From Thermoanaerobaculaceae bacterium (GTDB lineage: Bacteria > Acidobacteriota > Thermoanaerobaculia > Multivoradales > UBA5704): a DNA stretch of 64,000 nucleotides. The stretch spans positions 7,932,822-7,996,821 of the forward strand of contig OY970330.1 in assembly GCA_963717295.1 (NCBI GenBank), written 5' to 3'. Shown here in pieces: positions 3,269 through 61,615 of this stretch. The position numbers were made by a program, and so were the translations under genes. Position 1 is the stretch's first letter, and the number at the start of each line of letters is the position of its first letter. The notes under the pieces were generated by a model. That model saw only the letters and a program-made list of their open reading frames with translations. It did no database searches and had not been told where the DNA came from.

Positions 3269-3369
3269 CGGTTCCTCCAATGAAGGTTGGCTCTTGGGGA
3301 GCGTTCAGCGGCAAGTCTAGCCGAATTCTCAAGGCAACTCCGCGGCCGCCGCCTCCGTATCTGACGATC

Positions 3370-3993: not shown

Positions 3994-4019
3994 GGCGGCT
4001 CAGAAGGAGAAATGACGGA

Positions 4020-39541: not shown

Positions 39542-40669
39542 GTGACTGATCCCAAGACTTCCAAAGTTGATTCCGTAAGCGAGCCCATCAAGTTCTTCCT
39601 CCCCGGGCCGACCTACGTCCCCCAGGACGCGCTGCAGGCCATGACCCATCCCATGGTGGGCCACCGGTCGGCCGGATTCAAGGCGTTCTATCTGTCGCTG
39701 GCTGAGCGGCTTCCGAAGATTCTCCGCACGTCCGGCGACGTCATGGTCGCCACCGGCAGCTCGACGCTCATCATGGAGAGCGCGGTCATATCCTGCGCCG
39801 CCCAGGACGTGCTGAACCTCACCAACGGGGCCTTCTCGGAGCGCTGGCACTCGATCTCCAAGTCCATCGGCAAGGCCGCGGACAAGGTGTCCGCTCCCTG
39901 GGGACAGCCGGTCGATCCGGACGTCGTTCGTTCCGCGTTGCGGCGTAAGAAGTACGACGCCGTCACCGTGGTCCACAACGAGACGTCGACCGGCGTCCTC
40001 TCTCCCCTCGCCGAAATCGCCAAGGTGATCCGCGAGGAGAGCGATGCCATCATCATCGTCGACACCGTCTCCTCCCTGGCCGGCGCCCGGGTGGAGTCGG
40101 ACGACTGGGGGCTCGACGTGGTGCTCGCCGGCACCCAGAAGGCCGTCGCCGTGCCGCCGGGCCTCACCCTCTTCACCCTCTCGGAGCGGGCGGCCGAGCG
40201 GGCGGAGAAGGTGCCGCACCGCGGCTTCTACACCGACCTCCTGCGCTATCGCGACAAGCACAAGGAGGGTGGCTTCATCACCACACCGGCCATTCCGCTG
40301 CTCTACGCCCTGGACGTGCAGGCCACCCGCATCGTCGAGGAGGGCATGGAGGCGCGCTGGGCCCGCCACCAGCAGCTCTATGAGCGCACGGCGCAGTGGG
40401 CCGCCTCCCGCGGCTGCACCTACGCCGCCGCCGAGGGAGCGCGGTCGGTGACGGTGAGCTGCCTGTATCCACCGGAGGGCGTCGATCCCCAGGCCATCGT
40501 CAAGGGGCTGGCGGCGCGCGGCTACACGATCGGCGGCGGGTATGGCGACTGGAAGCCCACGACGTTCCGCATCGGCCACATGGGCGAGGTGCGGGGCGGC
40601 GATCTCGAGGCCCTGCTCGCCGAGATCGATCAGGTTCTGGAGACGGTCGCCGCGCAGGCGGTCCGCTGA
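39542..40669 (+). CDS. serC: class-V aminotransferase, probable phosphoserine aminotransferase (AGXT/SerC-like)
   Basis: PLP-fold class V motifs (VVHNETSTGV, LAGTQKAVAVPPG; K in TQK). Immediately upstream of serA. GTG start. Confidence 0.7.
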   Translation: MTDPKTSKVDSVSEPIKFFLPGPTYVPQDALQAMTHPMVGHRSAGFKAFYLSLAERLPKILRTSGDVMVATGSSTLIMESAVISCAAQDVLNLTNGAFSERWHSISKSIGKAADKVSAPWGQPVDPDVVRSALRRKKYDAVTVVHNETSTGVLSPLAEIAKVIREESDAIIIVDTVSSLAGARVESDDWGLDVVLAGTQKAVAVPPGLTLFTLSERAAERAEKVPHRGFYTDLLRYRDKHKEGGFITTPAIPLLYALDVQATRIVEEGMEARWARHQQLYERTAQWAASRGCTYAAAEGARSVTVSCLYPPEGVDPQAIVKGLAARGYTIGGGYGDWKPTTFRIGHMGEVRGGDLEALLAEIDQVLETVAAQAVR

Positions 40670-40671
40670 CC

Positions 40672-43811: not shown

Positions 43812-43919
43812 GCTCGTTCCTCCTTGGCGTTACAGGGTGGGGATTTTGGAAAAGGACTCCCGTCATGATGGAGGTCAGGCGCGCACGAAAAAAGGCGGCA
43901 GGTTCCGCCCCCTTCCGCC

Positions 43920-46913: not shown

Positions 46914-46930
46914 CGCTTACCGCCAGCGGC

Positions 46931-47611
46931 TCAGCTCCTCCTGCCGCGTGGCTCAAAGGTTATCTTACGCGCCTCCTCGGAGAGTCCGCGCACGCCTTGG
47001 GCCGTGGTCACTTGGTCGATGGCCTCCGTGACCGCGTGATGCACCGATTCCCGGAACATGATTGCGGTGTCCTCGTTGAAATATGTGGCCGGACGGAAAA
47101 TGAGACCGTAGACGAAGCCCGTAATCGGCATCGAGAGGACGGTGGGCTCAAGGCCGCGGTCCCCGTAGCGGACGAGGAAGCCGAGAGCGAGAAGGAGGCC
47201 AAAGAAAAGGATGGGCTTGAGGAGGAGCCCGGCGCAGCCAGGGCTGGGTTCGACTCCCTCAGTACCCCCGGACATACTCCGGTAGAGGAGGTATCCCACG
47301 AAGAGACAGACGAAGATGAAGAGGAGATCGAGGAGCACCCTTGAGATCTTTGCGAGCCACCAGGAGAAGAAGTACCCGGTGCCGAAGGGCGCGGCGCAAA
47401 TATCGAAGTTCAGGCCCTCGCGGCTTACCCGGAGATACACCCGCTTCCCCGCACCGAGGCCGCCCTGTTTCCATTCCACCTGGGAGATATTGAGGTCGGG
47501 GATCTCCCGCCGGGCGATGCCGGCTTTGACCAGCTCGTAGAAGTCCAGGGATGAGGTCGAGAACCCCTCAATCAGGCTGTGCCAATGACCCTCCACCTGC
47601 GGCTTGCCCAT
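46931..47611 (-). CDS. hypothetical membrane protein
   Basis: Central TM helices (LLDLLFIFVCLFVGYLLY, ILFFGLLLALGFLV). Directly upstream of the 997-aa ATPase. Confidence 0.45.
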   Translation of the reverse strand: MGKPQVEGHWHSLIEGFSTSSLDFYELVKAGIARREIPDLNISQVEWKQGGLGAGKRVYLRVSREGLNFDICAAPFGTGYFFSWWLAKISRVLLDLLFIFVCLFVGYLLYRSMSGGTEGVEPSPGCAGLLLKPILFFGLLLALGFLVRYGDRGLEPTVLSMPITGFVYGLIFRPATYFNEDTAIMFRESVHHAVTEAIDQVTTAQGVRGLSEEARKITFEPRGRRS

Positions 47612-47832
47612 GGCTTGGCTCCTTTCCGAGACAGATGTCTATATCTATAAGTGTACGGAGGAGAGGGGCTTGGTGTCCAGTGCAGGCGTAGTCATTTGAC
47701 CCTCGCAGTTGAGGGGAAGATGGGTATGCCGCGCGCGCGGAGGCACATCTTCCTTCGCGCCCGTTACTATGGCCGGAGCCGCGTCCTTTCGACCGAGCCG
47801 CACGTAGATATCCAGCTTCTGAGAATAGCCCA

Positions 47833-48306
47833 TCATGCCCGATCTACTAGCGCCGCAGCGAATCCCAAGGCGTCGAAGACGTTCATGCGGGCGTCCTCTG
47901 TCGTCCAAGCCTTGCGCTTCCTGGGGAGTCGCTCGGCGAGGGCCGGAAAGATCTCCGCGAGCCGGAGTGCCACCTCAAACTTGCTCTTCCCGGGCGCGAA
48001 GGCGTCTCTGACCCCAAGGCGGGACATCCGTTCCGTTGCCAGCCCTCGCTTCAGTGCCAGGAGTTCAATCGAGCGGATCTCCTTACCTGCTCGCTTCCGG
48101 CGTCGGCCGCCAGGGGCGGCAAGATCTTCGATCACGAGCAGGGTGGGCTCGTAGCGCGAGAGTAGCTCGTCCACCTTGCGAAGCAGACCGCCAGTCTTTG
48201 CGGGTACGACCCTCTCGCCCCAATCCACAAGGAAATTAGGCGGTTCGAGGACAGCAAAGGCGAAGCCCCTTGAGGTCGGATCTATGGCGAGAATGGTTTT
48301 TGTCAT
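47833..48306 (-). CDS. RuvC-like (RNase H-fold) resolvase-family protein, paralog 1
   Basis: MTKTILAIDPTSRGFAFAVLE...LLVIEDLAAPG resembles the RuvC/YqgF N-terminal motif IxGIDPG...hhhE. Paralogous to 62149..62649. Confidence 0.5.
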   Translation of the reverse strand: MTKTILAIDPTSRGFAFAVLEPPNFLVDWGERVVPAKTGGLLRKVDELLSRYEPTLLVIEDLAAPGGRRRKRAGKEIRSIELLALKRGLATERMSRLGVRDAFAPGKSKFEVALRLAEIFPALAERLPRKRKAWTTEDARMNVFDALGFAAALVDRA

Positions 48307-48307
48307 C

Positions 48308-48625
48308 TCACACTGCATGGCGAGAAGCAGAGCCGACTCTCTGCCGTTTCTCTTCCTTCGCTTCGAGTCTCCGCCGCCGCTTTGCGACTTGCTCCGCGAT
48401 CTCCTCGCATCTGCCGCGGAAGAGCGTGCAGACGGGGACGCCAAGAGCGGCCTCGTACGCAAGCCCGGTCTCAAGGGAAGGCGTGCGGTTCCCGGATTCG
48501 TAGCGCGACACCTTCACGCCCGTAGAGGCGCCGAGGAGATAGGCAAGCCGCGCCTGAGTCAGATGGGCGTGGCGGCGATAACTGCGGAGGTAGTAATTAA
48601 GTGGCCGTCGTTGAATGTGTTTCAT
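48308..48625 (-). CDS. XRE-family helix-turn-helix regulator
   Basis: LTQARLAYLLGASTGVKVSRYESGNRTPSLETGLAYEAALGV, an HTH_XRE motif. Confidence 0.7.
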   Translation of the reverse strand: MKHIQRRPLNYYLRSYRRHAHLTQARLAYLLGASTGVKVSRYESGNRTPSLETGLAYEAALGVPVCTLFRGRCEEIAEQVAKRRRRLEAKEEKRQRVGSASRHAV

Positions 48626-48981
48626 GGCAGCACAAAAAAGAGGCGGCTGGCGGGGTCGTCGGTTGAAAGCTGAGCGGGAACTTCAGACGAGAGGAAAGAT
48701 CGGAGAGAAACTCAGAGAGCTTATTCTGCACGCAGCAGAAAGCCCACGATCTGACCAATTTACTCCAACATTATACGTTAATGTCGAATGGGTGTCAAGT
48801 TTCAAGCGCAAGGGTTTTTGAACATCGCCAAAAAGAAAGCCCCAGGATTGCTTCCTGGGGCTGATACGAATGGAATTGGTTTGAGGTGCAAACGGACTTC
48901 AGGCTGCTATGTCAATCGCGACCGGAGCTGAGGCATACTCCTCGCCGACGAGGCCCAGGCGCTGGGTACCCAGGCAAGCCC

Positions 48982-49464
48982 CTATAGACCTCCCGCCATG
49001 GCTGCTTGCGCTCTCGCGTACTGCTTCGCAGCCCACTCCACCCGTCTCTTGAGCGCTCGATCAGTCGCAAGGGTTTGTTGCGCCTCCTCGCGCTTGATCA
49101 AAACCTCCTCGGGTGTGCGGGAGGGTCGCCAGAGCACTTTCTCCAGATCGGGCCCCATGTGGCGGCACCACCTTCGTTTCTGTGCGCCTTGCCGCCGCAG
49201 CGAATCGACGGTGACATTGGCGGCGACTTGACGCACGTAGGGCAGGCAGTTCAGCTTGTCTTCGGCCCTCGACTTCCAGAGTCCCAGCAACACTTCCTGC
49301 ACCAGGTCTTCGATGCACTCCGCCGAGAGCTGCCGCCCGAATCTCGCGGCGGTTGTGGTGACAGTTCGCCGGATCGCCGTGAGGTGCTCGGGGGTGGGCG
49401 CCATGTCACGCCGCCGTGCCGCTCTTCTCATGCAATGGGTAAACTTCGGCCTACGCTCCTTCAT
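48982..49464 (-). CDS. ECF-like sigma-70 family protein (start uncertain)
   Basis: CIEDLVQEVLLGLWKS (region 2.2-like) and a C-terminal basic HTH-like region. Several candidate start codons. Confidence 0.45.
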   Translation of the reverse strand: MKERRPKFTHCMRRAARRRDMAPTPEHLTAIRRTVTTTAARFGRQLSAECIEDLVQEVLLGLWKSRAEDKLNCLPYVRQVAANVTVDSLRRQGAQKRRWCRHMGPDLEKVLWRPSRTPEEVLIKREEAQQTLATDRALKRRVEWAAKQYARAQAAMAGGL

Positions 49465-49514
49465 TAGGAACTTTCCTCCTTTCGTCTGGAATGGGAGAGG
49501 TGTTGCGGGTGAGG

Positions 49515-49751
49515 CTAGATGAGGCCAGCTAAGACGATGCCGCTCCGGACCGTAGTCGTGCCGCAGACCTCGCACCAGCCTTGCCGCTGGTCGGGCTCGA
49601 CTTCAGCCGTGTAGAGGCAGCCGGGATTCATGCAGATCCCGGGCACCACATCATCCAGGGCGTACTCCTCGATGTACTCCCCGACCGTGAGAGCCCACTG
49701 GTCGGCCAGTTCGTCAAGCTTCGAGAACTCCTTTCGTGCGGCGGAAAACAT
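49515..49751 (-). CDS. small zinc-ribbon protein (78 aa)
   Basis: MFSAARKEF...CMNPGC...CEVCGTT, a CxxxxC...CxxC arrangement. Upstream of the ECF-like sigma. Confidence 0.4.
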   Translation of the reverse strand: MFSAARKEFSKLDELADQWALTVGEYIEEYALDDVVPGICMNPGCLYTAEVEPDQRQGWCEVCGTTTVRSGIVLAGLI

Positions 49752-50026
49752 GAGAGGCTCCTTTCTGAAAAAGGTTTTTAAGAAACCGGATTCAGGGTAA
49801 GGGCGGGAGCGAAGCGAGAAAAGGCGGCACAAAGTGCCGCCTTGAAGAGGAGAGGAATTTTGTCGTCCTATCGATCAGCTTCGACGAGGCAGTGAAATAC
49901 CCGGCAACACACGAGCCGAGCCTCACGGCTCCCCGCGGGTATACATACCCCGCTACATACAAGGTATGTACGGGTCCCGCCCGAGGCGGACCGCCGAATC
50001 CCCATACGGGGATTCAAAGTACTGGC

Positions 50027-50173
50027 TCCCCACCGCTGTCGGGCTGCGCCCGACTGGCGTGGTTTCCTGACGGCTATCGGGTCTCGATCTTTCCCTATCG
50101 GTCGGCCCTTTGACCAAACCCCGCCAGTCGGGCGCACCGGCCTCGATACTCGGCCTTCCCGACAGCGGTGGGG
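50027..50173. other. nested imperfect inverted repeat; candidate oriT (or attachment site) upstream of the coupling-ATPase gene
   Basis: CCCCACCGCTGTCGGG / CCCGACAGCGGTGGGG outer arms (16 bp) and GCGCCCGACTGGCG / CGCCAGTCGGGCGC inner arms (14 bp), about 60 nt apart. Small hairpins TACATAC-AAG-GTATGTA and CCCC-ATAC-GGGG lie just upstream (49940-50016). Confidence 0.45.
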
Positions 50174-50428
50174 CACTGGCTTACGAAGGGCCGACGCTTC
50201 GCGTCACTACTGGCGAAGGCGTCGAAGCTCTCCGCCTTGGCAGGAAGGAAACCACGCGCGAGACTTACGCTCGCGCCTACCTCTCTTGCCGCGCCCGCTC
50301 GGTCACCACACGCCGTATTGCGGGCGTCACCGTGGAGCTTCCAGGCACGGGTTCTGCGGTCCTCCCTAGCGGGGAGGACACTGGCTCCCCATGGGGAGGG
50401 GAAGAGAGGTCGGGCGCCTTCCTATCCC

Positions 50429-51709
50429 ATGGACCACACCCCTATCGCAATCGGCACCCGCACGTATTGGGTTTCGGATGACCCGAAGCTTGTTTTGCTG
50501 CATCCCGAGGACCGGGCACAGCACCTCTATGTCGTCGGAAAGACGGGGCTCGGCAAGAGCACCTTGCTTCGGAACCTCATCCTCCAGGACCTCTATGCCG
50601 GGCGAGGTGTGGGTCTCCTTGATCCTCATGGAGACCTCGCGCGCGATGTATTGGACGCGATCCCGCGCGGACGCACGAACGACGTGCTCTATTTCAACCC
50701 CGGCGACCTCGCGCGTCCCGTGGGCCTGAATCTCCTGCCCAGGGTTCCGCGCGACGAGGAACATCTTGTCGTGGCCGGAGTCCTCTCCGCCTTCCGGGGG
50801 ATCTGGGGCTCGAGCTGGGGACCGCGCCTCGAATACATCCTGGGACATGCCCTGGCGGCGCTCCTTGACCACGGCCAGCTCACGATCCTCGCCCTACCTC
50901 GTCTCCTATCGGACGACGCCTTCCGGGAGCGCCTCACGGCGCGTGTTCGAGATCCGATTGTCCGTGCCTTCTGGCGCGACGAGTACGCCCGCTACGAGAA
51001 GCGCTTTCGGCTTGAAGCCATCGCCCCGATCCAAAACAAGATCGGGCGCCTCCTCTCGAACGCTCCGATGCGGAACATCATGGGCCAGGTGAAAAGCCGC
51101 TTCGACGCGGGATTCCTCATGGACCGGAGCCGGATCATGATCGCCAATCTCTCGAAAGGCGTGATCGGCGACGACCATGCCCGTCTCCTTGGGGCGCTTC
51201 TCCTCTCGCAGTTCCAATGGGCGGCGATGCGGAGGGCGGCGTTGCCGTATGCTGCCCGCACCCCCTTCCACCTCTACATCGACGAGTTCCAGAGCTTCGC
51301 GACCGATGCCCTCACCTCCATCCTCGCGGAGGCCAGGAAATACGGGCTCGCCCTCGTTCTCGCCCACCAGTACCTCGATCAGCTCACCGACGAGATCCGG
51401 CAAAGCGTATTCGGCAATGCCGGCAACCTCATTGCCTTCCGGGTGGGCCAAGCCGATGCCCGTATCCTTGAGGACGAGCTCGGCGGCGACGTGAAGATGG
51501 GGAACCTCGTTTCCTTGGGGAAGCACGAGATCTATGCCCGGCTCCTGGACGAGGGCCGGATGCGGGAGCCCTTCCGGGGCAAGACCCTGGCGCCCGTCCG
51601 GGGCACCGCGACCGGCCGGCGGGAGGCGGTGATCCGGCAATCGCGGGAGCGGTATGGTAGGCCGCGGGCGGAGGTGGAGGGGAAGATCGAACGGTGGCTT
51701 GGCGGCTGA
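50429..51709 (+). CDS. TraD/TrwB-like conjugative coupling P-loop ATPase (paralog of the 997-aa protein's core)
   Basis: Walker A YVVGKTGLGKST, LLDPHGDLARDVL, Walker B HLYIDEFQSF. Aligns with residues ~380-800 of the 43920..46913 product. Confidence 0.6.
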   Translation: MDHTPIAIGTRTYWVSDDPKLVLLHPEDRAQHLYVVGKTGLGKSTLLRNLILQDLYAGRGVGLLDPHGDLARDVLDAIPRGRTNDVLYFNPGDLARPVGLNLLPRVPRDEEHLVVAGVLSAFRGIWGSSWGPRLEYILGHALAALLDHGQLTILALPRLLSDDAFRERLTARVRDPIVRAFWRDEYARYEKRFRLEAIAPIQNKIGRLLSNAPMRNIMGQVKSRFDAGFLMDRSRIMIANLSKGVIGDDHARLLGALLLSQFQWAAMRRAALPYAARTPFHLYIDEFQSFATDALTSILAEARKYGLALVLAHQYLDQLTDEIRQSVFGNAGNLIAFRVGQADARILEDELGGDVKMGNLVSLGKHEIYARLLDEGRMREPFRGKTLAPVRGTATGRREAVIRQSRERYGRPRAEVEGKIERWLGG

Positions 51710-51756
51710 CCACGCCGCCTTTGCGGGCCATCGGCCGGCCGGTACGCTGACTCCCA

Positions 51757-52764
51757 ATGTCCCATCTCCAGACCCGCAGACCCCGCTTCGATCGTGCACC
51801 GGTGCGCGGCATCATTCTTACGCCCCGCGACCTCGAGATTCTCCGCGCCGTCTGTCGCCACCGGCTCCTTCGCTCTACTCATCTCGTAGCTCTCTCCGGA
51901 GGAAGCCCCCAGGCGACGCTTCGCCGCTTACAGCTCCTTTTCCACCATGGCTACCTCGATCGGCCGCCCATGCAACTCGACTGGTACGCGCGAGGATCGG
52001 AGCCCATGGTCTATGCCCTCGGGACTCGGGGTGCGGAGGTTCTCGATACCGAGGGTGAACTGAGGCGGGGCGGTGTGCGTTGGGACACGAAAAACCGCAA
52101 CCTCTCCCGCGTCTTCCTTCATCACACGCTCGCGGTCGCCCAGGTCATGGTGGCCTTCGAGGTCGCTTGCCGGAGGCGCGAGGGGGTGCAGTTCATCTCG
52201 CCGGAAGACGTGCTTGCCGGAGCGCCACCTGAGACTCGGCGTCTGCGCCTTCCCTTCCGCTGGCAGGTCGAGGTCCGCCAAGGCGGCAAGCTCTACCATC
52301 TGGGCGTCGAGCCGGATCGGGTCTTCGGCCTGCACTTCGAGGGTGTGCCGGAGAACCGGAGTCGAGCGTTCTTCTTCCTCGAAGCGGACCGGGGCACTAT
52401 GCCAGTTGAGAGGAAGGGCCTCGTGCAGACAAGCTTTCTCCGCAAGATCTTCGCGTACCGAGAGACCTGGCGGCAGGGACTCCACAAGGAGCACCTCGGC
52501 ATCCCGAACTTCCGAGTCCTCACTGTAACGACGAGCGAGGAGCGGGTGGGGCACTTGGTTGGGGCGTGTCGGTCGTTATCCGGAGGCGGCTCGCGCCTTT
52601 TTCTCTTCACGACCGGGGAACTAGATCGCGAAGACATTCTCGCCCAATGGTGGGAGAGTGGGAGGGGCGAACTCGTGAGACTCTTCGGGGCCACCCGAAC
52701 CTCCCCGCCGGAAGTGAAGGATACACATCTCTTGGAGGGGCCGATGACCTCCTCCGAGACTTAG
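51757..52764 (+). CDS. replication-relaxation family protein (Replic_Relax, putative relaxase-like)
   Basis: N-terminal wHTH ILTPRDLEILRAVCRHRLLRSTHLVAL and overall Replic_Relax layout. Adjacent to the coupling ATPase. Confidence 0.6.
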   Translation: MSHLQTRRPRFDRAPVRGIILTPRDLEILRAVCRHRLLRSTHLVALSGGSPQATLRRLQLLFHHGYLDRPPMQLDWYARGSEPMVYALGTRGAEVLDTEGELRRGGVRWDTKNRNLSRVFLHHTLAVAQVMVAFEVACRRREGVQFISPEDVLAGAPPETRRLRLPFRWQVEVRQGGKLYHLGVEPDRVFGLHFEGVPENRSRAFFFLEADRGTMPVERKGLVQTSFLRKIFAYRETWRQGLHKEHLGIPNFRVLTVTTSEERVGHLVGACRSLSGGGSRLFLFTTGELDREDILAQWWESGRGELVRLFGATRTSPPEVKDTHLLEGPMTSSET

Positions 52765-52966
52765 GTCCAACCACTAGTCGTCTGAGTCCGCGCGCACGAG
52801 ATCTCTCTAGGCGACATCCTCGGAAACTCACAGCTTCAGTGCCGGAGCGGGAACCGAGTGTGCTAGACTGCCAGAAGTTGCGGCTTTTAGCTAAATAGCT
52901 ATAAGCAAGATGCGCTGTGTGTCTTGGCCCTATAAGTTTGCATGAATCCTCAAGGGGTGTGCAGCA

Positions 52967-54970
52967 ATGCAAGACGGTTCGAGTGGCAGAAAAAGATCTT
53001 CCAATTTTCAGATAGCTCGCCTCACAGATCCTGAAGCAGTGAATGTCCGCCAATATGGAGGAAAGATTTCGAACCTTGCCCGTCTAACTACGATAGGTAG
53101 TCGTGTCCCTTCAGGCTTGGCACTCGGCAAACAAGTGCTCGCCTATTTTCTTAGTGAAAACGAGATTGACCTCGCGGCTCTCGACCAAATTCATAGCCGC
53201 GGCATGATTTTCCTTGAATCAGCTCTAAGCGAAGCACAAACGTGGCAAGAAAGGATCGTCTCAACTATCCGGGATGGAAGATTCCCTCCGGATATACAGG
53301 CGACGCTCCTTGATGAGTTATTCGACGGTCGTCGATATGCGGTTCGTTCCTCGTGTGTAGTAGAGGATTCCTCCTCTACCTCGTTCGCAGGACAGTACAT
53401 GACGGTTCTCGGTGTTTCGGGTCACAGCGCACTTCTAGACGCAATTCGTTCATGCTGGTCATCTCAATATGACGGTCGGGTTCTCACTTATGCTCTCTCT
53501 CGCCGTGGAATGCCTGTTCTCATTCCATCCATGGCGATTCTGATCCAGGAAATGCTGGAGCCGGAGTTTGCTGGCGTTTGCTTTTCTGAGGGTCCGACTC
53601 CACGAACTAGAGACTTCACAATTGTCGAGAGTGTTGATGGTATTGGAGAAGCGCTAGTTAGCGGTGAAAAGACACCAGCACACTTCGAGGTTGCGAAGGA
53701 TGGCTCCATTCATCGCGCATTGGTTAATCCCGCGACTGGAAAAGTCCCGACCGAGAACCAAATTGTAGCTGTTGCCGACGAGGCAAAACGAATTTCTACA
53801 GCCTTCGGTTCTCCCCAGGATATTGAATGGGCAATTGCCAATGACCAACTTTTCCTTCTTCAAGCACGACCAATAACAGTTCTCGGAGGCCAAAGAACGG
53901 CATCCATTCCTACATTCGGTGGAGACCAGACTAAGAGACCTTCTCTTGGCGGTGAACAGGTTGTCGCGACTTCCGAGATCCTTCGCGACGATCTTCATGA
54001 GTGGCTGATCGCGCGGATCGATCCACTCGTCTATCGGGGAGCGGCCTACCTGCTTTCGAAACAGCATGAGGATGGGTCTTGGAAGGTTGAGGGTCATCCA
54101 GAGTGGGATTGTGTTGCCACGGCTCTGACGGTAAGACTATTGCTAGACGGTGGTGTTCCGAGCATGTTGACGTGGTCACTACCAGGGCGGGCGAATGACG
54201 CACCTGCTCTCGGAGTTCAGGCTGCAATAGGCTGGTTAGTAAGAAATATAAAAGAGGATGGCAGTTGGGGAACTGATCTCTGGGATACCTGCCAAGTAAT
54301 CAGAGCTCTCCTACGCTCGGGATTCACCCTTGATGAGCCTATTCTAGCCTCAGCGTTTACTCAAGTGACATCGCAATTGGCCAGGGGGATGACCAGTGTC
54401 GCAGAGCAAGAATGGGCCGGTGCCGGCTTTCTCGCTGTTGTTCTGCAACTCCTACATGACGCTCGAAAGCAGCCAATGCTCGATGATTTCATGTCCCTTC
54501 TCCTGGAAGCGCAAACAGCAGAAGGCGATTTTCCTGCGTTCTACCGCGGCAGTCGCGACCCAGTTCCATCGGAATGGCACACGGCCCAAGCGATCACTGC
54601 TCTTAGTCACTGTTGCGCTGGAAAAGGCGATGTAATGACTGCCGTGCAAAGAGCACAGGATTGGCTTGTTTCACGCCAGCATGGCAACGGTTCATGGGGA
54701 GTTAGCGCTGGGTCCTATTCCCATTTCAATACGTTCTTCACATCCTATGCCATCGTCTCTTTCTCAAACGAAGACCTCCCTCGAAGCGATACCGTGACGA
54801 AGGCCCTAAGGTGGTTACGCGGAAAACAACTGGCATCCGGCGCATTTGGCGACATTGCATCATCGTTGATGGCATTGAGCGCCTTCCAACATGTCCGAGG
54901 GCGAATATTTTCCCTTGATATGCCAATCCCTCTTTTTCTGAGAATCCAAAGTTGTCTTAGTAAGGCATGA
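52967..54970 (+). CDS. fusion protein: PEP-utilizing-enzyme ATP-binding (PPDK_N / ATP-grasp-like) domain + alpha/alpha-toroid domain with QW motifs (terpene cyclase / prenyltransferase-like)
   Basis: N-terminus VRQYGGKISNLARLTTIGSRVPSGLAL resembles GGKGANL..LG.PVP of PEP synthase/PPDK/rifampin phosphotransferase. C-terminus has QW-like repeats KQHEDGSWKV, NIKEDGSWGTDLWDT, SRQHGNGSWGVS, GKQLASGAFGD. About 50% GC. Confidence 0.6.
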   Translation: MQDGSSGRKRSSNFQIARLTDPEAVNVRQYGGKISNLARLTTIGSRVPSGLALGKQVLAYFLSENEIDLAALDQIHSRGMIFLESALSEAQTWQERIVSTIRDGRFPPDIQATLLDELFDGRRYAVRSSCVVEDSSSTSFAGQYMTVLGVSGHSALLDAIRSCWSSQYDGRVLTYALSRRGMPVLIPSMAILIQEMLEPEFAGVCFSEGPTPRTRDFTIVESVDGIGEALVSGEKTPAHFEVAKDGSIHRALVNPATGKVPTENQIVAVADEAKRISTAFGSPQDIEWAIANDQLFLLQARPITVLGGQRTASIPTFGGDQTKRPSLGGEQVVATSEILRDDLHEWLIARIDPLVYRGAAYLLSKQHEDGSWKVEGHPEWDCVATALTVRLLLDGGVPSMLTWSLPGRANDAPALGVQAAIGWLVRNIKEDGSWGTDLWDTCQVIRALLRSGFTLDEPILASAFTQVTSQLARGMTSVAEQEWAGAGFLAVVLQLLHDARKQPMLDDFMSLLLEAQTAEGDFPAFYRGSRDPVPSEWHTAQAITALSHCCAGKGDVMTAVQRAQDWLVSRQHGNGSWGVSAGSYSHFNTFFTSYAIVSFSNEDLPRSDTVTKALRWLRGKQLASGAFGDIASSLMALSAFQHVRGRIFSLDMPIPLFLRIQSCLSKA

Positions 54971-54992
54971 AACTCAAACGAGGATCTCCAAA

Positions 54993-56099
54993 ATGAAAGA
55001 CTTTAGTCCCCCCTTTCTCTCTTCGCTCGTTCCCATCTTAGAGGTCATTCCGAATGACCTGCTTCCTTGGATTGCAGAAAAGCATATGGGTTACCTGGAC
55101 GACCGTATCCATAAGATAGATATTCTTACAGACTATCTAGCCGAATGTGATTCGGTTGCCGCCCAACGCAAGGAGTTCATTGCGTTTGTCGATGGATGGA
55201 CCCGTCAGGAGTGTGTTGACTTCCCTGTTTACATGACTGAATATCGTTCTCGGTATACCGAAGTGCGGGTTGGTGTAGAGGCGCAATGCGAACGTATCCT
55301 TGACGATGAAGAACTTTGGAAATCACCCGTAACGCTCTTGGAATTTTGGCGCGACTTCACCCTGCTCAATGAACTTGACAGTCTCCATGGGATGTTTCTC
55401 ACCTCCGGCCGTTGGTACGTTAACGTCATGCTTCCAGTGGTGAAGGAATTGGTACAGTGTTCATTGCCTAACGAGATATCACCGGGCGATCGAGTCAATC
55501 TCTCATACTTAGTCGCTCGGCGGGTAATTACCCCTCGGTTCGCAGAGGTGCCGGCCGAATTTCCTTCCCATCTAGAGCGCCGATTTTCCTCTCTCTTCAT
55601 TCCCGTCTTGCAGTACTTTGATAGGCAGTTATTGTTTTTATTTGAACAGATGTCTGATCTTCCCCTGCCTGACGATTATTCGATCCGGAAATTTGCGATG
55701 GATGTAAGCAGCAACCCCGATCCCTATCGAAACCTGTTGAGCCAAGGGATTTACCCGCCGTTCGCTTGGCATGAACTCTATTCGAGTAAAAGGCAGCGTC
55801 GCCCTGGAAAGAGTTTTGAAGAAGCAACGGCTAGATTTTTGGAGAGCGTGACGGAAGAGGACCGTCCGCGCGCTGACCAAGCGCTGGAGTTTCTTCGCTA
55901 TATGAAAGCATTTGAACTGAACTACAATAATTATAATTACAAGGGCAAGTTTGGCTTAGTTTCCAAATATTTTTACTGGCGCACAAGTCAACTTCTAAGA
56001 TCAGAAGACGTCTCGCCTTTTCTCGACGCTATCTTAGGCGATCGTTTTTTTGAAGCTCTTGGAGTGCTTGAGCGCGCTCTTCTGGCGAAAGGAGTTTAG
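54993..56099 (+). CDS. hypothetical protein (368 aa), low GC, inside the cargo operon
   Basis: Stop/start spacing of 22 nt from the upstream gene and 3 nt to the next. No recognisable motif. Confidence 0.5.
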   Translation: MKDFSPPFLSSLVPILEVIPNDLLPWIAEKHMGYLDDRIHKIDILTDYLAECDSVAAQRKEFIAFVDGWTRQECVDFPVYMTEYRSRYTEVRVGVEAQCERILDDEELWKSPVTLLEFWRDFTLLNELDSLHGMFLTSGRWYVNVMLPVVKELVQCSLPNEISPGDRVNLSYLVARRVITPRFAEVPAEFPSHLERRFSSLFIPVLQYFDRQLLFLFEQMSDLPLPDDYSIRKFAMDVSSNPDPYRNLLSQGIYPPFAWHELYSSKRQRRPGKSFEEATARFLESVTEEDRPRADQALEFLRYMKAFELNYNNYNYKGKFGLVSKYFYWRTSQLLRSEDVSPFLDAILGDRFFEALGVLERALLAKGV

Positions 56100-56102
56100 G
56101 AG

Positions 56103-56429
56103 ATGGTAACCATTATCGGAATCAGTGCGTCGTCGGGTAGGGCGAAAGGCACTGCGAAGTGGATTCACACTGCTGAAGATCTTGAGGCATTTCAGGTTGG
56201 CGATATCCTGCTTGCCAAAATGACATCTCCTGATTGGGGACAGATCTTTCAAAAGGCAGGAGCAGTTGCGACAGAGCAAGGAGGGATGCTTTGTCACGCT
56301 GCGATCGTTGCCAGAGAGGAAGGAATTCCTGCTGTAGTAGGTCTCGGAGATGAGCTGGCGCAGATTCAGAATGGTACAGTGGTTACGGTGGATGGTGATG
56401 AAGGTACGGTGGAAGTAGAGATTGCTTGA
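56103..56429 (+). CDS. stand-alone PEP-utilizing enzyme mobile (phosphohistidine swivel) domain protein
   Basis: GGMLCHAAIVAREEGIPAVVGLG matches the PEP-utilizers signature (phospho-His in GG..SHAAIvARE.GiPaVvG). 108 aa. Confidence 0.65.
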   Translation: MVTIIGISASSGRAKGTAKWIHTAEDLEAFQVGDILLAKMTSPDWGQIFQKAGAVATEQGGMLCHAAIVAREEGIPAVVGLGDELAQIQNGTVVTVDGDEGTVEVEIA

Positions 56430-56460
56430 AGTAGCCGTCGAGTAGGCATATCATCAAACC

Positions 56461-57042
56461 ATGAAAGGAACGCAAATGGCCAGCATAGAAGTGTTATATG
56501 AGGGTTACGTTAAGGAAGGCGATGGTGGTGACATCGTGCGCAACACTGTCTGCCTCGTGCTGGATGATAACGTGAAGATGGTTGTCGATCCTGGTCTCGT
56601 AGAATCGCCGAGCATCCTGCTCAATGCGCTTGGGCGCTTCAATCTAACTGCTGACGACATCACTCACGTCTATGTGACTCACTATCACATGGACCACGTA
56701 CGCTATGTCGGTCTCTTTGCAAAGGCTATCGTAGTCGACTACAAATATTTCTATGATGGCGAACTATGGGGTGAGCACGAAGGAGATGGGCATTCGATAA
56801 CTAAGAATATCCGAATACTTCATACTCCCGGCCATACGCTGGACGACTCCGCGCTCCTGGTAGATACCGAAGATGGAGTAGTTGCAATTTCGCATATCTG
56901 GTGGTTTCAAGACAGAACACCTGAGGATGACCCAATGGCAACTGACCAGAGTCTTCTTGACGCCTCTAGAACCAAAGTGGAGGCAGTGGCTCAATGGATT
57001 ATTACGCCACACGGTGGCAGAATCGAGATCACGAAGAAGTAA
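56461..57042 (+). CDS. MBL-fold metallo-hydrolase
   Basis: THYHMDH (HxHxDH) plus downstream His/Asp ligands (HTPGHT, D..ALL). Confidence 0.7.
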   Translation: MKGTQMASIEVLYEGYVKEGDGGDIVRNTVCLVLDDNVKMVVDPGLVESPSILLNALGRFNLTADDITHVYVTHYHMDHVRYVGLFAKAIVVDYKYFYDGELWGEHEGDGHSITKNIRILHTPGHTLDDSALLVDTEDGVVAISHIWWFQDRTPEDDPMATDQSLLDASRTKVEAVAQWIITPHGGRIEITKK

Positions 57043-57493
57043 ATGACACTAGTCCAAGGAAACAAACAGGAAGGTATCGGAAGTGCTGATGCAAGTGTCG
57101 GGGAGGAGCCCCCCCCGCGCTTGCTGCTCGTCCGAGAATGTTCCCGATCTTGCTCGGCGACAGTTAGGCCTGTGCATAAGAAGTAGTTGATGCCAGAGTA
57201 GGCACACTCTTCCCAGGATCGACGGCGAGGCAGCCGTCCGAAGCGGGGGAAAGGTCCAAGCCATCGCCGGGGAAGTAGACGAGCCTGCTTACTGATGGAC
57301 TGTACTGGTCTGCCGCTGCTACCAGCCGGTCCCGAGGAAGATTGGCGCTTCGCGAACCGGGCGATCTGCATCCATTGGGGGAGAAGGATTCGGGTCGAGA
57401 CCCTTCCTAGACTGCCAAGCTGTTGCGAACTTACATTGAGATATCCCTCTTAGCCGATTTCCGGTTTAGATATCAGGGCTGTAGACTATGTAA

Positions 57494-60073
57494 ATGCCGA
57501 CTTCCCCAGACGTTTCGACTGAAATTCTCCAATGGTCGCAGGATCGCCCCGGTTGGCAACGGGACGCACTTCGGCGGCTTCTCTCGACAGGAGAGATTTC
57601 AACCACCGAGATCGATCAGCTCCTTCTCCTGTGCAAGGCGGCCAGGGGACTTGCGCAGCCCACCTCTCCCAATGTCCTCACCCGGAGCCATCTTCCTACC
57701 AAGAGCACCGGCGGGGACTCGACCTCGTTGGTTACTCTGACCCACCATTGCGGCGCGAACGCCTTGGCGTCCGAACAAACCATCGCATTCGGCCCACGCC
57801 TCACGATCGTCTATGGCCAGAATGCCGCGGGCAAGTCAGGCTACACAAGAATTCTCAAACAGGCATGCCGGTCGCGGGCCACTGAAAAGATTCTGGGCGA
57901 TCTTCTCAGCGGTGCATCGCCGGTGAAACTACAGGCCACAATCTCGTTCCGGCACGGCGCCGAGGAAACTCCAACGCTGTGGGCAATGGGCGATCCGCCT
58001 TCGGATGCTCTTGCGGCGGTTAGTGTATTCGACTCGGGCTGTGCGCCGGTTTATCTCCGGGATAAAACCGATGTCGCCTTCCGTCCCTTCGGCCTTGATA
58101 TATTCGACCGGCTGGCTTCCCTTTGTAGCGAACTGCGCAATCGACTCGAAAGCGAGAAGGTAAAGCTGAACATGCTCGCCTCGCCACTTCCGACATTTGC
58201 TGAGGCAACGAAGGTCAGATTCTTTATTGATCATCTGTCTTCCCTCACGAAACCGGAAGACCTTAGAAGCTTGGCCATCCTCTCGTCCACTGAGAGAGCA
58301 CGCCTTGAAGCGCTGCGAGGACACCAGCGTGATCTTCTCTCCGCCGATCCTAAGGCCCGGGCCAGGGAGCTAACCTCAAGAGCCGACCGTGTTGACTTAC
58401 TCAAGCGGCATATAGCGGATCTATTTGCGGTTCTACGGGGAAGCGCGCTATCAGATCTTCAAAAGTCGGCTGAGGCACTTCGGGCGGCGCAAGCATCACT
58501 CGCTCTCTTGAGGACTACAGCATTAACCCCCGACTTGCTTCCTGGCACAGGAGAGGAGAACTGGCGGAAGATGTGGGAAGCAGCCGAGGGATTCTCAGGA
58601 ATAGCTTATCCCGACTCCCCCTTTCCCGCTCTGACAGATGATGCGCGATGCCCTCTCTGTCAGCAGGAGATAGGCGTGGAGGCTGAAGCACGACTTCGGC
58701 ATTTTGCCGAATATGTCGCATCAACGGCTCAAACGCGAGTACGCGAGGCGGAGAGAGCATATGGAGCGTCTCTTTCCCTGTTAAACCAAGCGGTGATTGT
58801 CCGGCCCGATATTGAGTTGGCGATTAGCGAGCTCCGCCTAGAGAATGAGCAACTTGCCCAGAGCGTCCAAGGCTTCTTGCAAAACGCTGGACAAACTCGA
58901 AAAGGGATCAATGAAGCTCTAGCACAAGGCGTGGGATTCTTGGCAAGCGTGGTCCAGAGTCCCGAAGCGGAATTGCAGGCAGCTGCCTTGAGCCTTCGCG
59001 AACGAGCCAAACAACTATTGGCCGAGCAGCCAACGATGAATCCCGAAGCTATAAGCGAGCTGAAGGAGCTAGAGGCCCGTTTGACCCTTGGCGAGCATAT
59101 GGACGCTGTCCTTGAGGCGATTGAACGCAAAAAGCAATTGGCGGCCTACGAGCTGTGCCTATCCGACACGACAACCCAAGCAATAACTCGGAAGAGTACG
59201 GAGTTGACAACCCAATTGGTGACAGATCAGCTCAAGGCTGGATTCCAGGAGGAGTTGAAGGCTCTAGAGTTTAATCATCTCGCTGTTGCGGTCCAGCCAG
59301 CGGGAGGCGCCAGAGGAACGCTGTTTCACCGGCTTATCTTCACCAACGCACCAGGAGTCACTATCACCAATGTACTTAGCGAGGGAGAGTCGAGGACTCT
59401 TTCGCTCGCTTCTTTCCTCACAGAGCTAAAGACCGCCGAGAGTCGCTCCGCAATCATCTTTGACGACCCCGTTTCTTCGCTGGATCATATGTGGCGGGAG
59501 AGAATAGCTCGAAGACTTGTCGCAGAAGCTGCGACGCGTCAGGTCATCGTGTTTACTCATGACATTCTCTTTCTAAGATTCCTCGCAGACGAAGCGACAA
59601 GGTTTGGCGTAGACTGCAAGCATCAATATATCCAGCGTGACACTCAGGTCGGTATATGCACGGAAGACCTCCCGTGGATTGCCATGAATACCTCTGCCCG
59701 TATCAGAAGAATGCGGGAGCGCTATCAGGAAGCCGAGAAGCTCTTCCGCACCTTCCCCGAGAAATACGAGGACGCGGCTCGCGGTATTTATCGCCTCCTT
59801 CGAGAGGCATGGGAGCAAGCAACCACAGAAGTTCTCCTCAACGATGTTGTTCAGCGATATCGTCCGAGCATCGAGACCAATAAAGTAAGGCTTCTACATG
59901 ATATTACTCCTGATGACTGCAAGGCGATCGAAGCAGGAATGACAGAGTGCTCACGTTGGCTCCACGATCAGCCTGCCGCCGACGGCACCCCTTTTCCAAG
60001 GCCAGATGCCCTCAAAAGCCGGATTGATGACCTTGACGGATTAGTGAAAGCCATTAAAAAGCGACGCCCTTAA
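57494..60073 (+). CDS. large ABC/Rad50-like ATPase with a coiled-coil CxxC zinc hook; RloC/PrrC-like candidate anticodon nuclease (859 aa)
   Basis: Walker A GQNAAGKSGYT, long coiled coil containing DARCPLCQQEI (zinc-hook-like), ABC signature LSEGESRTLSLA, Walker B AIIFDDP, H-loop VFTHD, then a ~170-aa C-terminal domain containing R..E...H spacing. Confidence 0.45.
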   Translation: MPTSPDVSTEILQWSQDRPGWQRDALRRLLSTGEISTTEIDQLLLLCKAARGLAQPTSPNVLTRSHLPTKSTGGDSTSLVTLTHHCGANALASEQTIAFGPRLTIVYGQNAAGKSGYTRILKQACRSRATEKILGDLLSGASPVKLQATISFRHGAEETPTLWAMGDPPSDALAAVSVFDSGCAPVYLRDKTDVAFRPFGLDIFDRLASLCSELRNRLESEKVKLNMLASPLPTFAEATKVRFFIDHLSSLTKPEDLRSLAILSSTERARLEALRGHQRDLLSADPKARARELTSRADRVDLLKRHIADLFAVLRGSALSDLQKSAEALRAAQASLALLRTTALTPDLLPGTGEENWRKMWEAAEGFSGIAYPDSPFPALTDDARCPLCQQEIGVEAEARLRHFAEYVASTAQTRVREAERAYGASLSLLNQAVIVRPDIELAISELRLENEQLAQSVQGFLQNAGQTRKGINEALAQGVGFLASVVQSPEAELQAAALSLRERAKQLLAEQPTMNPEAISELKELEARLTLGEHMDAVLEAIERKKQLAAYELCLSDTTTQAITRKSTELTTQLVTDQLKAGFQEELKALEFNHLAVAVQPAGGARGTLFHRLIFTNAPGVTITNVLSEGESRTLSLASFLTELKTAESRSAIIFDDPVSSLDHMWRERIARRLVAEAATRQVIVFTHDILFLRFLADEATRFGVDCKHQYIQRDTQVGICTEDLPWIAMNTSARIRRMRERYQEAEKLFRTFPEKYEDAARGIYRLLREAWEQATTEVLLNDVVQRYRPSIETNKVRLLHDITPDDCKAIEAGMTECSRWLHDQPAADGTPFPRPDALKSRIDDLDGLVKAIKKRRP

Positions 60074-60079
60074 GGCGCT

Positions 60080-61615
60080 CTAGTCGCTTAGGCTAATGCT
60101 TCCATTGTTCCCTTGGGAACTGACAAGCATCAGCATTAACTGTCGCAGAAGCTTATCCCAAGTTCGAGGTACGTCTCGGTGTGGGGCACCAGACCAATTT
60201 TTTACCCGCTCGGCAACTAGTTTCGCTTCCGGAAGCGCTGTAAAATCAATCGTCTTTTGATTCACTTGCCAGTTCGAGGTGAACAGAGCGACCAATTCGC
60301 GCTTTTCATCGTTCGTGCCCGATTGATACAGAGAATACGCGGAATCCAGCCGTTCGAGGAATTCGGTGAGCTTCTTCGGTCCGCTCCGCTCCGGATCGTC
60401 CAACGCAGCAAGCTTCTCTTCGAGCGCCTGCTTTTCGGCAATGAGTGCCGCCTTCCGTTCCTCGAAGAGATCGCGGTCGAGGAGCCCGTCCACCACCGCA
60501 TCGGCGAGGCGTCCGCGGCGCACCGCAAGCTGGCTGAGTTGCAGTTCAATCGTCTTTCTTTCTCTGGTCGCGTCATCCTCTTGGGTTGCCGTGAGGCTCC
60601 CGATCTTCTCGCGAATGTAGTCTCGCTCCTCCGGATCGAGCTGGCCGGCTTGAAGGAGCGGGGTGAGCTTCACCTCCGGCCCGTCCTCCCGCACGCTCGT
60701 GGTCGGACAGGTTCTCGTGTGGCAGCGGTAATAGACGTAGCCCTTCTGTCGCTCGCCGATCAAGGCATAGCCGCAACCTGTGCAATGGAGCGTCCGCCGG
60801 AAGAGGAAGTCGTGCATCACAGGCCGTGCGGAGAGCTTGCCGTCTAGGGCGGCCTGCACTCGCTCGAAGAGCGACCGCGAGATCAAGGGCTCATGAATGC
60901 CCTCGTAGACCTCGCCGCGCCGCTTGATCTTGATGAGCCCTACGTAGAAGGGATTGCGGAGAATGCCCGCGAGGCTGTTGATTGAGACCTCGCGGCCCAG
61001 GCGGTTCCTGAGGCCCTGCCGGTGCAGCTCCTCTTGGAGGGTGTGCAGGGTGTATCTGCCGGTTGCATAAAGCTCGAAGGCCCGCCGCGCGAGCGGCCCC
61101 TTCAAGGGATCGATTGTCTTTGGCTTTCCCGCGCCGCAGTCCAGGTATCCAATCGGCGCCTGCATCGGGAAGATGCCCTGACTTAGGCGCCCGTTGATGC
61201 CCTTCAAGGTCTCCTCGCGGAGATTGCGGATGAAGTCGGCGGCGACAACGGCCTGGATGTCGGCCGACAGGCGCCCGCCTCGGGTTTGGAGGTCGAGCGT
61301 CTCGTTTACGAAATGCACGGCGACGCCGCGGTCGATGAGTTCGCCGAGTTCCGCCCAGTCCCGGAGGTTCCGGGCACTGCGGTCAATCTTGTGGATCAGG
61401 ACCCCTTTGGCTTTGCCCTGCCGCAAGAGCCGGAGCATCTCCGTCCACTCCCGTCGGCCGCGCTTGGCGGCCGTCTCCCGCTCCTCAAACCAGCGCGCGA
61501 CCTCGAAGTGATTGCGCTCCGCAAAGCGCTCGATCGCGGCTCGCTGTTCCTGAAGCGAGACATGGCGCTCGCCTTGTCGGGGCGTCGAGACGCGGATATA
61601 TCCATAGAACATCAC
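60080..61615 (-). CDS. large serine recombinase (second copy, distinct sequence)
   Basis: YGYIRVSTPRQ (catalytic Ser in the resolvase domain), recombinase domain, Cys cluster CTGCGYAL...YYRCHTRTC, and a C-terminal coiled-coil. Confidence 0.85.
   Translation of the reverse strand: MMFYGYIRVSTPRQGERHVSLQEQRAAIERFAERNHFEVARWFEERETAAKRGRREWTEMLRLLRQGKAKGVLIHKIDRSARNLRDWAELGELIDRGVAVHFVNETLDLQTRGGRLSADIQAVVAADFIRNLREETLKGINGRLSQGIFPMQAPIGYLDCGAGKPKTIDPLKGPLARRAFELYATGRYTLHTLQEELHRQGLRNRLGREVSINSLAGILRNPFYVGLIKIKRRGEVYEGIHEPLISRSLFERVQAALDGKLSARPVMHDFLFRRTLHCTGCGYALIGERQKGYVYYRCHTRTCPTTSVREDGPEVKLTPLLQAGQLDPEERDYIREKIGSLTATQEDDATRERKTIELQLSQLAVRRGRLADAVVDGLLDRDLFEERKAALIAEKQALEEKLAALDDPERSGPKKLTEFLERLDSAYSLYQSGTNDEKRELVALFTSNWQVNQKTIDFTALPEAKLVAERVKNWSGAPHRDVPRTWDKLLRQLMLMLVSSQGNNGSISLSD

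Follow-up and report, generated by a model that had tools for sequence, protein, structure and literature searches.

A four-gene cassette combining a probable split phosphohistidine relay with a terpene-cyclase-like toroid on an integrative element

The window analysed in this study is a 64,000-nucleotide stretch of contig OY970330.1 from a Thermoanaerobaculaceae bacterium. It carries a cassette of four genes, which encode an ATP-grasp domain fused to an alpha/alpha toroid (gene 1), an orphan all-helical protein (gene 2), a free-standing phosphohistidine swivel domain (gene 3) and a minimal metallo-beta-lactamase (MBL)-fold metallohydrolase (gene 4). As shown in Table 1, all four genes lie on the + strand. 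The intergenic gaps were 22, 3 and 31 nt, which confirms the tight spacing and common orientation described in a previous sequence-only reading of this DNA. The low GC content reported there was also confirmed, at 0.47-0.54 in the cassette against 0.65-0.71 in the preceding 12 kb and most of the window. All motifs quoted at that time (GGKISNLARL...PSG, KQHEDGSW, KEDGSWGTDLWD, RQHGNGSW, GGMLCHAAIVAREEGIPAVVG and HYHMDH) were found in the translations.

Domains and motifs of the cassette proteins

The domain calls of the sequence-only reading were upheld by hidden Markov model (HMM) scoring. Pfam placed PPDK_N at residues 30-312 of gene 1 (E 3.5e-50) and SQHop_cyclase_C (4e-10) and SQHop_cyclase_N (4e-9) in its toroid. 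Gene 3 matched PEP-utilizers (PF00391, E 2e-25), and gene 4 matched Lactamase_B (PF00753, E 1.3e-8). Weak Prenyltrans and TED matches were seen at residues 490-630 of gene 1, and a disordered linker (residues 306-332) joins its ATP-grasp domain to a single alpha/alpha toroid. Gene 2 had been described as a domain of unknown function, a label that does not hold since no Pfam model matched it. It was also without a match among the NCBIfam, PADLOC and PHROGs models. No recognisable fold match was obtained for gene 2, and sequence or structural relatives outside its own family were not detected.

The ATP-site motifs of PPDK_N are conserved in gene 1, as in the dikinase superfamily, and the ATP-grasp motifs of the gene 1 family are invariant and shared with rifampin phosphotransferase (RPH)-like proteins. 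His65 of gene 3 lies within GGMLCH (codon 56295-56297). Together with G60 and G61, it was invariant in 15 of 15 swivels, including those of distant variants and a fused form. The swivel loop reads GGxx(C/S)H in the family and falls within the catalytic-histidine pattern GGxx(T/C/S)H. In NCBIfam, the N-terminal domain of gene 1 and gene 3 fell among the models for phosphoenolpyruvate (PEP) synthase, RPH and PigC/RedH, and gene 3 aligned with the swivel segments of PEP synthase, RPH and PigC. The scores were far under every equivalog cut-off (for example, 179 bits vs a cut-off of 883). PEP synthase and PPDK were the top NCBIfam and PDB sequence matches for both the ATP-grasp and the swivel. These enzymes have the two domains in common with the cassette, but their PEP/pyruvate TIM-barrel (PF02896) had no Pfam match in any of the four cassette proteins. 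RPH (PDB 5hv1, 5hv6, 5fbs) uses a similar relay, but its central acceptor (RIF-binding) domain was found nowhere in the cassette. The domains and their invariant motifs agree with the earlier proposal of a split, PEP-synthase- or RPH-like phosphohistidine relay. We propose that the ATP-grasp domain of gene 1 is the ATP site that loads the swivel histidine.

The toroid has an alpha/alpha fold with QW repeats that resembles the beta domain of class II terpene cyclases. Its closest fold matches were these cyclases, with MstE, which has a single domain, and drimenyl diphosphate synthase among them. Glycoside-hydrolase and TED toroids scored lower, at 9-15% identity, and LanC-type proteins were not among the top fold matches. 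The repeat register was set by HMMER, which paired residues 495-589 of squalene-hopene cyclase (SHC) with toroid positions 197-284. Inner-helix starts were counted backwards from this segment, and the register is a sequence alignment with no structural superposition. The inner helices of SHC start at 306, 373 (P-D-V-D-D-T-A-V-V-V-W-A-L), 443 and 495, and those of gene 1 at 379, 436 (T-D-L-W-D-T-C-Q-V-I-R-A-L), 482 and 535. By this register, D374/D376/D377 of SHC (D-V-D-D-T-A) stand opposite D437/W439/D440 of gene 1 (D-L-W-D-T-C). The central Asp of DxDD is the general acid of class II cyclases. The closest class II cyclases are the single beta-domain enzymes (MstE 6sbb, prenylcyclase 6ij1, 8paj), drimenyl diphosphate synthase (8zg0) and the HAD-TC-beta drimenol synthases. 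The cyclase motif is DxDD, whereas the cassette toroid reads DLWD and has neither DxDD nor DxDTT. W439 was invariant in 17 of 17 toroids, distant ones included. These results suggest that the toroid is probably not a canonical cyclase. Since the pocket position is strongly constrained yet chemically altered, binding of a lipophilic or cationic group as ligand is favoured. The QW toroid had been read as a binder or cycliser of its substrate; a binding module now appears more likely and a cyclase less so. We propose that it binds a lipophilic substrate.

In gene 2, the loop D129-x-x-H132-x-M134-x-L136-x-S138-x-x-W141 was kept across the toroid-associated and toroid-less subfamilies, as were G252, Y311, Y316 and G318. 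A conserved polar loop in a helical scaffold would fit an active or docking site. A segment of ~65 residues (about 163-230) was present in every toroid-associated gene 2 and absent from the toroid-less subfamily. Because this segment tracks the presence of the toroid, it suggests a contact between gene 2 and the toroid. We propose that gene 2 is an acceptor-site or docking subunit.

Conservation and variation of the cassette

A word-indexed search of 5.8 billion cluster representatives, which stand for about 15 billion proteins, returned ~36 ATP-grasp-toroid fusion proteins at 39-65% identity. The next matches were ordinary RPH-/PpsA-like proteins that aligned with the N-domain only. For gene 2, 46 homologues were obtained, and they shared their contigs with gene 1. 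An exhaustive gene 2 profile search of 1.84 billion representatives gave 14 matches, and gene 2 proteins number ~80 in total across both subfamilies. Four fusion loci were found among 185,579 species (one genome scanned for each) and 15 in a scan of 241 million metagenome records. The cassette was absent from the phage and plasmid collections that were searched.

The order ATP-grasp-toroid, gene 2, swivel was observed in every fusion locus long enough to judge, in Thermoanaerobaculia, Planctomycetota, Rhodoferax, Chryseobacterium and metagenomes. It spans at least four phyla (Acidobacteriota, Planctomycetota, Proteobacteria and Bacteroidota), and the gene boundaries were kept across phyla at 39-81% protein identity. 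In the neighbourhood comparison proposed with the sequence-only reading, the fusion co-occurred with gene 2 and the swivel in all judged loci. Four cassette loci, including those of Planctomycetes and Clostridium, were surrounded by housekeeping genes (L006, L008, L082, L099). These results demonstrated that the cassette is a real but rare unit. In one metagenomic contig (L076, 7469-9458), gene 1 comes in two pieces, a PPDK_N fragment of 126 aa and a remainder of 485 aa, owing either to a frameshift or pseudogene or to an assembly error.

The fourth position of the set is a slot that different hydrolases fill. Residues H74xH76xD78H79, H125, D128/D129 and H184, the metal ligands of the MBL fold, were invariant in 4 of 4 MBL-type loci. 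The best solved relative of gene 4 was MBLAC1 (4v0h, E 6e-9), and its orthologues had a weak Anti-Pycsar_Apyc1 match. This type was limited to the window and its three closest relatives (L001, L077, L078). The other loci long enough to judge had an isochorismatase-family gene (PF00857, E 1e-32 to 1e-37) directly downstream or directly upstream. The Asp-Lys-Cys triad, D in VIDxQ, K in KxRxSxF and C in MTNxC, was kept in 10 of 10 of these hydrolases. They were nearest to the RutB, BiuH and nicotinamidase models, and no NCBIfam equivalog cut-off was reached. The MBL protein is therefore not a fixed member of the four-gene set first described, an isochorismatase-type hydrolase taking its place in most relatives. 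Two unrelated hydrolase folds in one slot is non-orthologous displacement. Displacement within an obligatory slot suggests that hydrolysis is an integral part of the system, and the chemistry common to the two folds points to an amide, lactam or ester as the target bond. Directly after the isochorismatase gene, an open reading frame (ORF) of ~170 aa was observed in three loci (L076 11603-12115; downstream flanks of L088 and L093). It is conserved among them (tblastx E 1e-18 to 1e-176), has no Pfam or NCBIfam match and may be a fifth accessory gene in one subclade.

Distant variants showed which parts of the cassette can be separated (Table 1). The ATP-grasp-toroid fusion, part of the original description, is present but not obligatory, since variants have the two as separate genes or have no toroid. 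Stand-alone ATP-grasp subunits were found only in distant variants (L079, L081, L099). Stand-alone toroids have a C-terminal extension with a coiled-coil-like stretch and one to three hydrophobic segments (KD19 2.1-2.6); no transmembrane-like hydrophobic segments were found in the gene 1 and gene 2 proteins of the window. Toroid-less systems make up a second small family, with 35 proteins, among them a TetR-gene-2 fusion. One copy is chromosomal and stands in [Clostridium] polysaccharolyticum (L099), flanked by obg and a dNK/thymidylate-kinase-like gene. At this locus, a gene for a 223-aa P-loop kinase (12165-12836) with weak dNK, AAA_28 and thymidylate-kinase matches directly follows the toroid-less cassette; this hints at a possible nucleoside-like substrate, in one species only. 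In L081, a TetR gene and the beginning of the gene-2-like gene share 41 nt (2619-4248), and the 548-aa protein P0199 joins a TetR/AcrR domain at its N terminus to a gene-2-like part. These TetR links hint at control of the toroid-less cassette by a small-molecule ligand. In L082, the locus of one swivel-hydrolase fusion, a GAF-Enzyme-I (PtsP-like) gene lies ~7 kb upstream.

Gene 2 occurred exclusively alongside other cassette parts. It stood directly upstream of the swivel gene, and this was the sole invariant adjacency. The ATP-grasp gene was present in all versions except the L082/L083 type, and the toroid in most versions. The invariant core of the cassette is gene 2, the swivel and the hydrolase.

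The host element and its genes

The cassette is cargo on an element of ~19.5 kb (42141-61615) that abuts serA. The two large serine recombinases bounding the element, its type IV coupling protein (T4CP)-like genes and a Replic_Relax gene support the earlier view that the cassette was acquired horizontally on an integrative element. The two T4CP-like genes are paralogous, lie on opposite strands and are visible as inverted repeat I1. The cassette of L001, from Thermoanaerobaculia, is also surrounded by two serine recombinases and two T4CP-like genes. This common kit suggests that a family of integrative mobilizable elements spreads the cassette.

The small regulatory genes are separated from the T4CP-like/Replic_Relax genes by a long nested inverted repeat, whose arms measure 16 nt (100% complementary) and 21 nt (95%). 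As single-stranded DNA it folds at -53.1 kcal/mol (z -7.9), which was equalled by 0 of 200 shuffles. From its position, it is a candidate origin of transfer (oriT). The repeat overlaps the mechanical GTG start of a 513-aa ORF, the true start of which is probably further downstream.

The neighbour of the cassette had been taken for a candidate RloC-like defence ATPase. It remains a candidate defence ATPase, but the RloC-like assignment was not retained, since PDC-S06 with its AAA_13 protein fits better (PADLOC full length, E 6e-208) and PrrC matched at only E 9e-5. PDC-S06 shares the low-GC cargo segment and an upstream motif with the cassette; it consists of one AAA_13 gene without sequence relationship to the cassette proteins and was not present at other cassette loci. 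The motif, CTAGACTGCCA-N3-GTTGCG, lies 104 nt upstream of gene 1, and a second copy (CTAGACTGCCA-N3/4-GTTGCG, 57407-57431) lies 87 nt upstream of the PDC-S06 gene. It occurs in exactly two copies in the window and was not found in related loci; two or more matches arose in 18 of 100 shuffles, so the statistical support is weak. The motif may be a shared promoter or operator of the two low-GC cargo units.

Table 1. Features of the cassette, its host element and its distant variants. Positions are those of the window or, where a locus is named, of that locus.
Feature	Position	Strand	Description
Gene 1	52967-54970	+	667 aa; ATP-grasp (PPDK_N) fused to alpha/alpha toroid
Gene 1, ATP-grasp (PPDK_N) domain	53054-53902	+	residues 30-312
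Gene 1, toroid domain	53972-54967	+	residues 336-667
Gene 2	54993-56099	+	368 aa; orphan all-helical protein
Gene 3	56103-56429	+	108 aa; free-standing phosphohistidine swivel domain
Gene 4	56461-57042	+	193 aa; minimal MBL-fold metallohydrolase
Motif CTAGACTGCCA-N3-GTTGCG	52863-52886	+	upstream of gene 1
serA	40396-42270		flanking chromosome
Large serine recombinase	42141-43811	-	
T4CP-like gene	43920-46913	-	997 aa
Helix-turn-helix gene and sigma-70-region-2 gene	48308-49575		
Nested inverted repeat	50028-50173		arms of 16 and 21 nt
Second T4CP-like gene	50168-51709		
Replic_Relax gene	51757-52764		
AAA_13 ATPase (PDC-S06)	57494-60073		859 aa
Second large serine recombinase	60080-61615	-	
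Variant L079			isochorismatase, gene-2-like, swivel, stand-alone toroid, stand-alone ATP-grasp, EamA transporter
Variant L080			set of L079 in divergent arrangement, again with EamA
Variant L081			TetR, gene-2-like, swivel, isochorismatase, ATP-grasp; no toroid; adjoins CBASS operon
Variant L082/L083 (and L098)			gene-2-like, swivel-isochorismatase fusion protein, toroid
Swivel-isochorismatase fusion gene	L082 9068-10006		312-aa protein
Swivel-isochorismatase fusion gene	L083 1994-2932		312-aa protein
Swivel-isochorismatase fusion gene	L098 377-1378		312-aa protein
Stand-alone toroid gene	L079 2962-4353		
Stand-alone toroid gene	L080 6621-8057	-	
Stand-alone toroid gene	L082 10020-11249		

Function of the cassette and alternative explanations

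It has been reported that PEP synthase, RPH, HpeHI and PpsAB pass the beta-phosphate of ATP through a histidine to a second substrate (PMC4844700; PMC12167813). Characterised RPH-family relatives phosphorylate small molecules via this relay, and their split versions work in trans, the two-component dikinases without a stable complex (PMC4844700; PMC12167813). We tentatively favour, at a little short of an even chance, a role of the cassette in inactivating or detoxifying a natural toxin or antibiotic, by a multi-subunit small-molecule dikinase of the RPH/HpeHI type together with a dedicated hydrolase. The compound is probably lipophilic. In this mechanism, the ATP-grasp domain of gene 1 would bind ATP and move its beta-phosphoryl group to His65 of gene 3, with release of AMP and Pi, as homology with PEP synthase, RPH and HpeHI and the conservation of every catalytic motif suggest. 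The phospho-swivel would dock on a new acceptor module and phosphorylate the bound substrate. This module would consist of gene 2 and, in most versions, the terpene-cyclase-like toroid, which lacks the cyclase general acid and may bind or extract a bulky lipophilic molecule. Gene order, the gene 2 insertion that co-occurs with the toroid and the predicted membrane anchoring of stand-alone toroids point to this step. The hydrolase would act on the same molecule, before or after phosphorylation, in an obligatory step that is probably amide, lactam or ester cleavage. The grounds for this are the presence of a hydrolase in all judged loci, the displacement between two folds and the swivel-hydrolase fusions, which would let phosphorylation activate the bond being hydrolysed. 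Overall, a small molecule would be phosphorylated in an ATP-driven step and hydrolysed, and an integrative mobilizable element would carry this function as adaptive cargo. Domain identities, conserved motifs, synteny, hydrolase displacement and the fusions are direct observations; we infer which way the phosphoryl group flows, what gene 2 and the toroid do and what kind of substrate is used.

A small-molecule role is favoured by the activities of all characterised homologues, by the TetR and EamA partners, by the housekeeping contexts and by the absence of the cassette from phage and plasmid collections. Several observations weigh against this assignment. Gene 2 has no detectable similarity to acceptor-binding domains, and its role was assigned from its position only. 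No ATP-grasp gene was found within 8 kb in the L082/L083 type, where the phosphoryl donor may differ, possibly being PEP. Since dikinase-derived protein kinases such as VadK exist (PMC13400623), the acceptor may be a protein. Neither a riboswitch nor any other clue to a ligand was detected. Defence or candidate-defence genes neighboured the cassette in about half of the contexts, which look like defence islands on mobile elements and fit a role in defence as well as one in resistance.

These neighbours lead to a second explanation, defence against phages or other mobile genetic elements, which we consider unlikely although still a serious rival. Here the relay would modify a phage or host molecule upon infection, possible targets being a nucleotide-like signal, a protein or a compound linked to membranes or isoprenoids, and the hydrolase would be the effector or a reset enzyme. 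In 11 contexts with 92 neighbour genes, PADLOC identified PDC-S06, PDC-S35, a CBASS set, a type I restriction enzyme, a GajB-like helicase and six large serine recombinases. The cassette of the window lies beside PDC-S06 on an integrative element, and L081 adjoins CBASS. Other loci adjoin a type I restriction enzyme with a GajB-like UvrD helicase (L077), SLATT and patatin genes (L078, by Pfam only), an SLFN-type helicase (L002, by Pfam) or NB-ARC/AAA_16 NTPases (L075, STAND-like, by Pfam only). PDC-S35 was among the pooled neighbours and was not assigned to a locus. The rare and patchy spread over phyla, the foreign GC content, the self-contained unit with variable flanks and the weak match of MBL-type members to the Apyc1 family are also consistent with defence. 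However, none of the four proteins matched a defence-system HMM in PADLOC-DB v2, and L006, L008, L082 and L099 lie among housekeeping genes. TetR and EamA partners are typical of small-molecule operons, and all characterised homologues act on small molecules. The contexts amount to about a dozen independent ones, too few for a sound enrichment statistic, and the cargo of mobile elements neighbours defence genes for many reasons. In a related form, the cassette could be a novel immunity or chemical-warfare module that combines the phosphohistidine relay, a membrane- or isoprenoid-binding toroid and the orphan protein to phosphorylate a lipid-linked, signalling or invader-derived target, with the interchangeable hydrolase completing or resetting the reaction; this too would be an unlikely outcome.

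A role in making or tailoring a terpenoid, meroterpenoid or other secondary metabolite is quite unlikely. Here an isoprenoid would be bound or cyclised by the toroid, phosphorylated or activated by the dikinase and trimmed by the hydrolase. The toroid most resembles class II terpene cyclases such as MstE and drimenyl diphosphate synthase, but its invariant Trp replaces the central Asp of DxDD. In the HAD-TC-beta drimenol synthases, a cyclase beta domain is fused to a phosphate-handling domain (PMC12232559, PMC12365925); the partner there is a phosphatase, whereas gene 1 has a kinase-type ATP-grasp. PigC and RedH are among the NCBIfam matches, and PigC activates a carbonyl. Phosphoryl transfer by the ATP-grasp and swivel of PigC/RedH/HapC is reported to activate a substrate oxygen and not to inactivate a drug (PMC13534948). 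These are single polypeptides with a central substrate domain of their own, whereas the cassette has no pigment context and scores far under their cut-offs. An EamA exporter gene is present in the split variants L079 and L080. By contrast with terpene cyclase systems, no isoprenoid pathway genes lie near the cassette, and no prenyl-diphosphate synthase, prenyltransferase or other biosynthetic gene was conserved near the loci examined. The toroid is also wholly absent from one subfamily, and the flanks differ between loci.

Catabolism or scavenging deserves little weight. The dikinase would trap or activate a diffusible compound by phosphorylating it, or the cassette would be an ATP-driven amidohydrolase in which phosphorylation activates a stable amide or lactam. 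The split dikinases that initiate catabolism, HpeHI and PpsAB, are the nearest characterised multi-subunit relatives, and amidases of the RutB, BiuH and nicotinamidase type come nearest to the cysteine hydrolases. The swivel-hydrolase fusion puts the phosphohistidine beside the hydrolase active site, and the context is chromosomal housekeeping in some hosts. On the other hand, downstream catabolic genes are not conserved, a mobile-element location and foreign GC content would be unusual for a two-step catabolic fragment, and the toroid and gene 2 are without precedent in such pathways.

The sequence-only reading had also offered a ribosomally synthesised and post-translationally modified peptide (RiPP) pathway, and a kinase-alpha/alpha-toroid fusion does superficially resemble the architecture of class II-IV lanthipeptide synthetases, with a kinase and a toroid cyclase acting on a precursor peptide. 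This option is disfavoured and very improbable. LanC-like cyclases and lanthipeptide synthetases have a Cys-Cys-His zinc site and a precursor gene. The toroid has a single near-invariant Cys and so no such site, no cassette protein had a LANC_like Pfam match, LanC was missing from the top fold matches, and a survey of 17 loci revealed no conserved small ORF beside the cassettes. The idea of an ordinary PEP synthase or RPH gene that has decayed or suffered a frameshift has only the shared domains in its favour and is refuted to the point of negligible probability by gene boundaries conserved at 39-81% identity across phyla, by the missing TIM-barrel and RPH acceptor domain and by a toroid and gene 2 foreign to both enzymes.

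Since the split small-molecule dikinases PpsAB (phenylphosphate synthase), CreHI and HpeHI have already been characterised (PMC12167813), the split alone is not new. In these enzymes the swivel is fused to an RPH-type substrate domain and the ATP-grasp stands alone, whereas the cassette has a free swivel and an ATP-grasp-toroid; their division of subunits is not that of the window. They also lack a toroid, a gene-2-like protein and a coupled hydrolase, and belong to aromatic-catabolism operons. The cassette would operate in the manner of RPH or HpeHI without belonging to either. The relay chemistry of the small-molecule dikinases is known, and the cassette adds a proposed new acceptor module and an obligatory hydrolase. 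The earlier statement that no described system has this domain combination stands, as there was no PADLOC match and the literature search found no published description of it.

RPH-family small-molecule dikinases are a recently recognised and poorly mapped class with roles in antibiotic resistance and aromatic catabolism. The cassette shows that their relay can be dismantled into a free 108-aa phosphocarrier and rewired to different acceptor hardware. The hydrolase swap, the swivel-hydrolase fusions and the gene 2 insertion that tracks the toroid give testable predictions of contacts, and the orphan gene 2 protein is a good target for structural and functional work. With an antibiotic or toxin as its substrate, the cassette would be a new mechanism of mobile resistance. 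A link to infection would make it new defence chemistry, and if it is an immunity module, it would be a new dikinase-based anti-phage mechanism or the first dikinase-driven ATP-dependent amidohydrolase.

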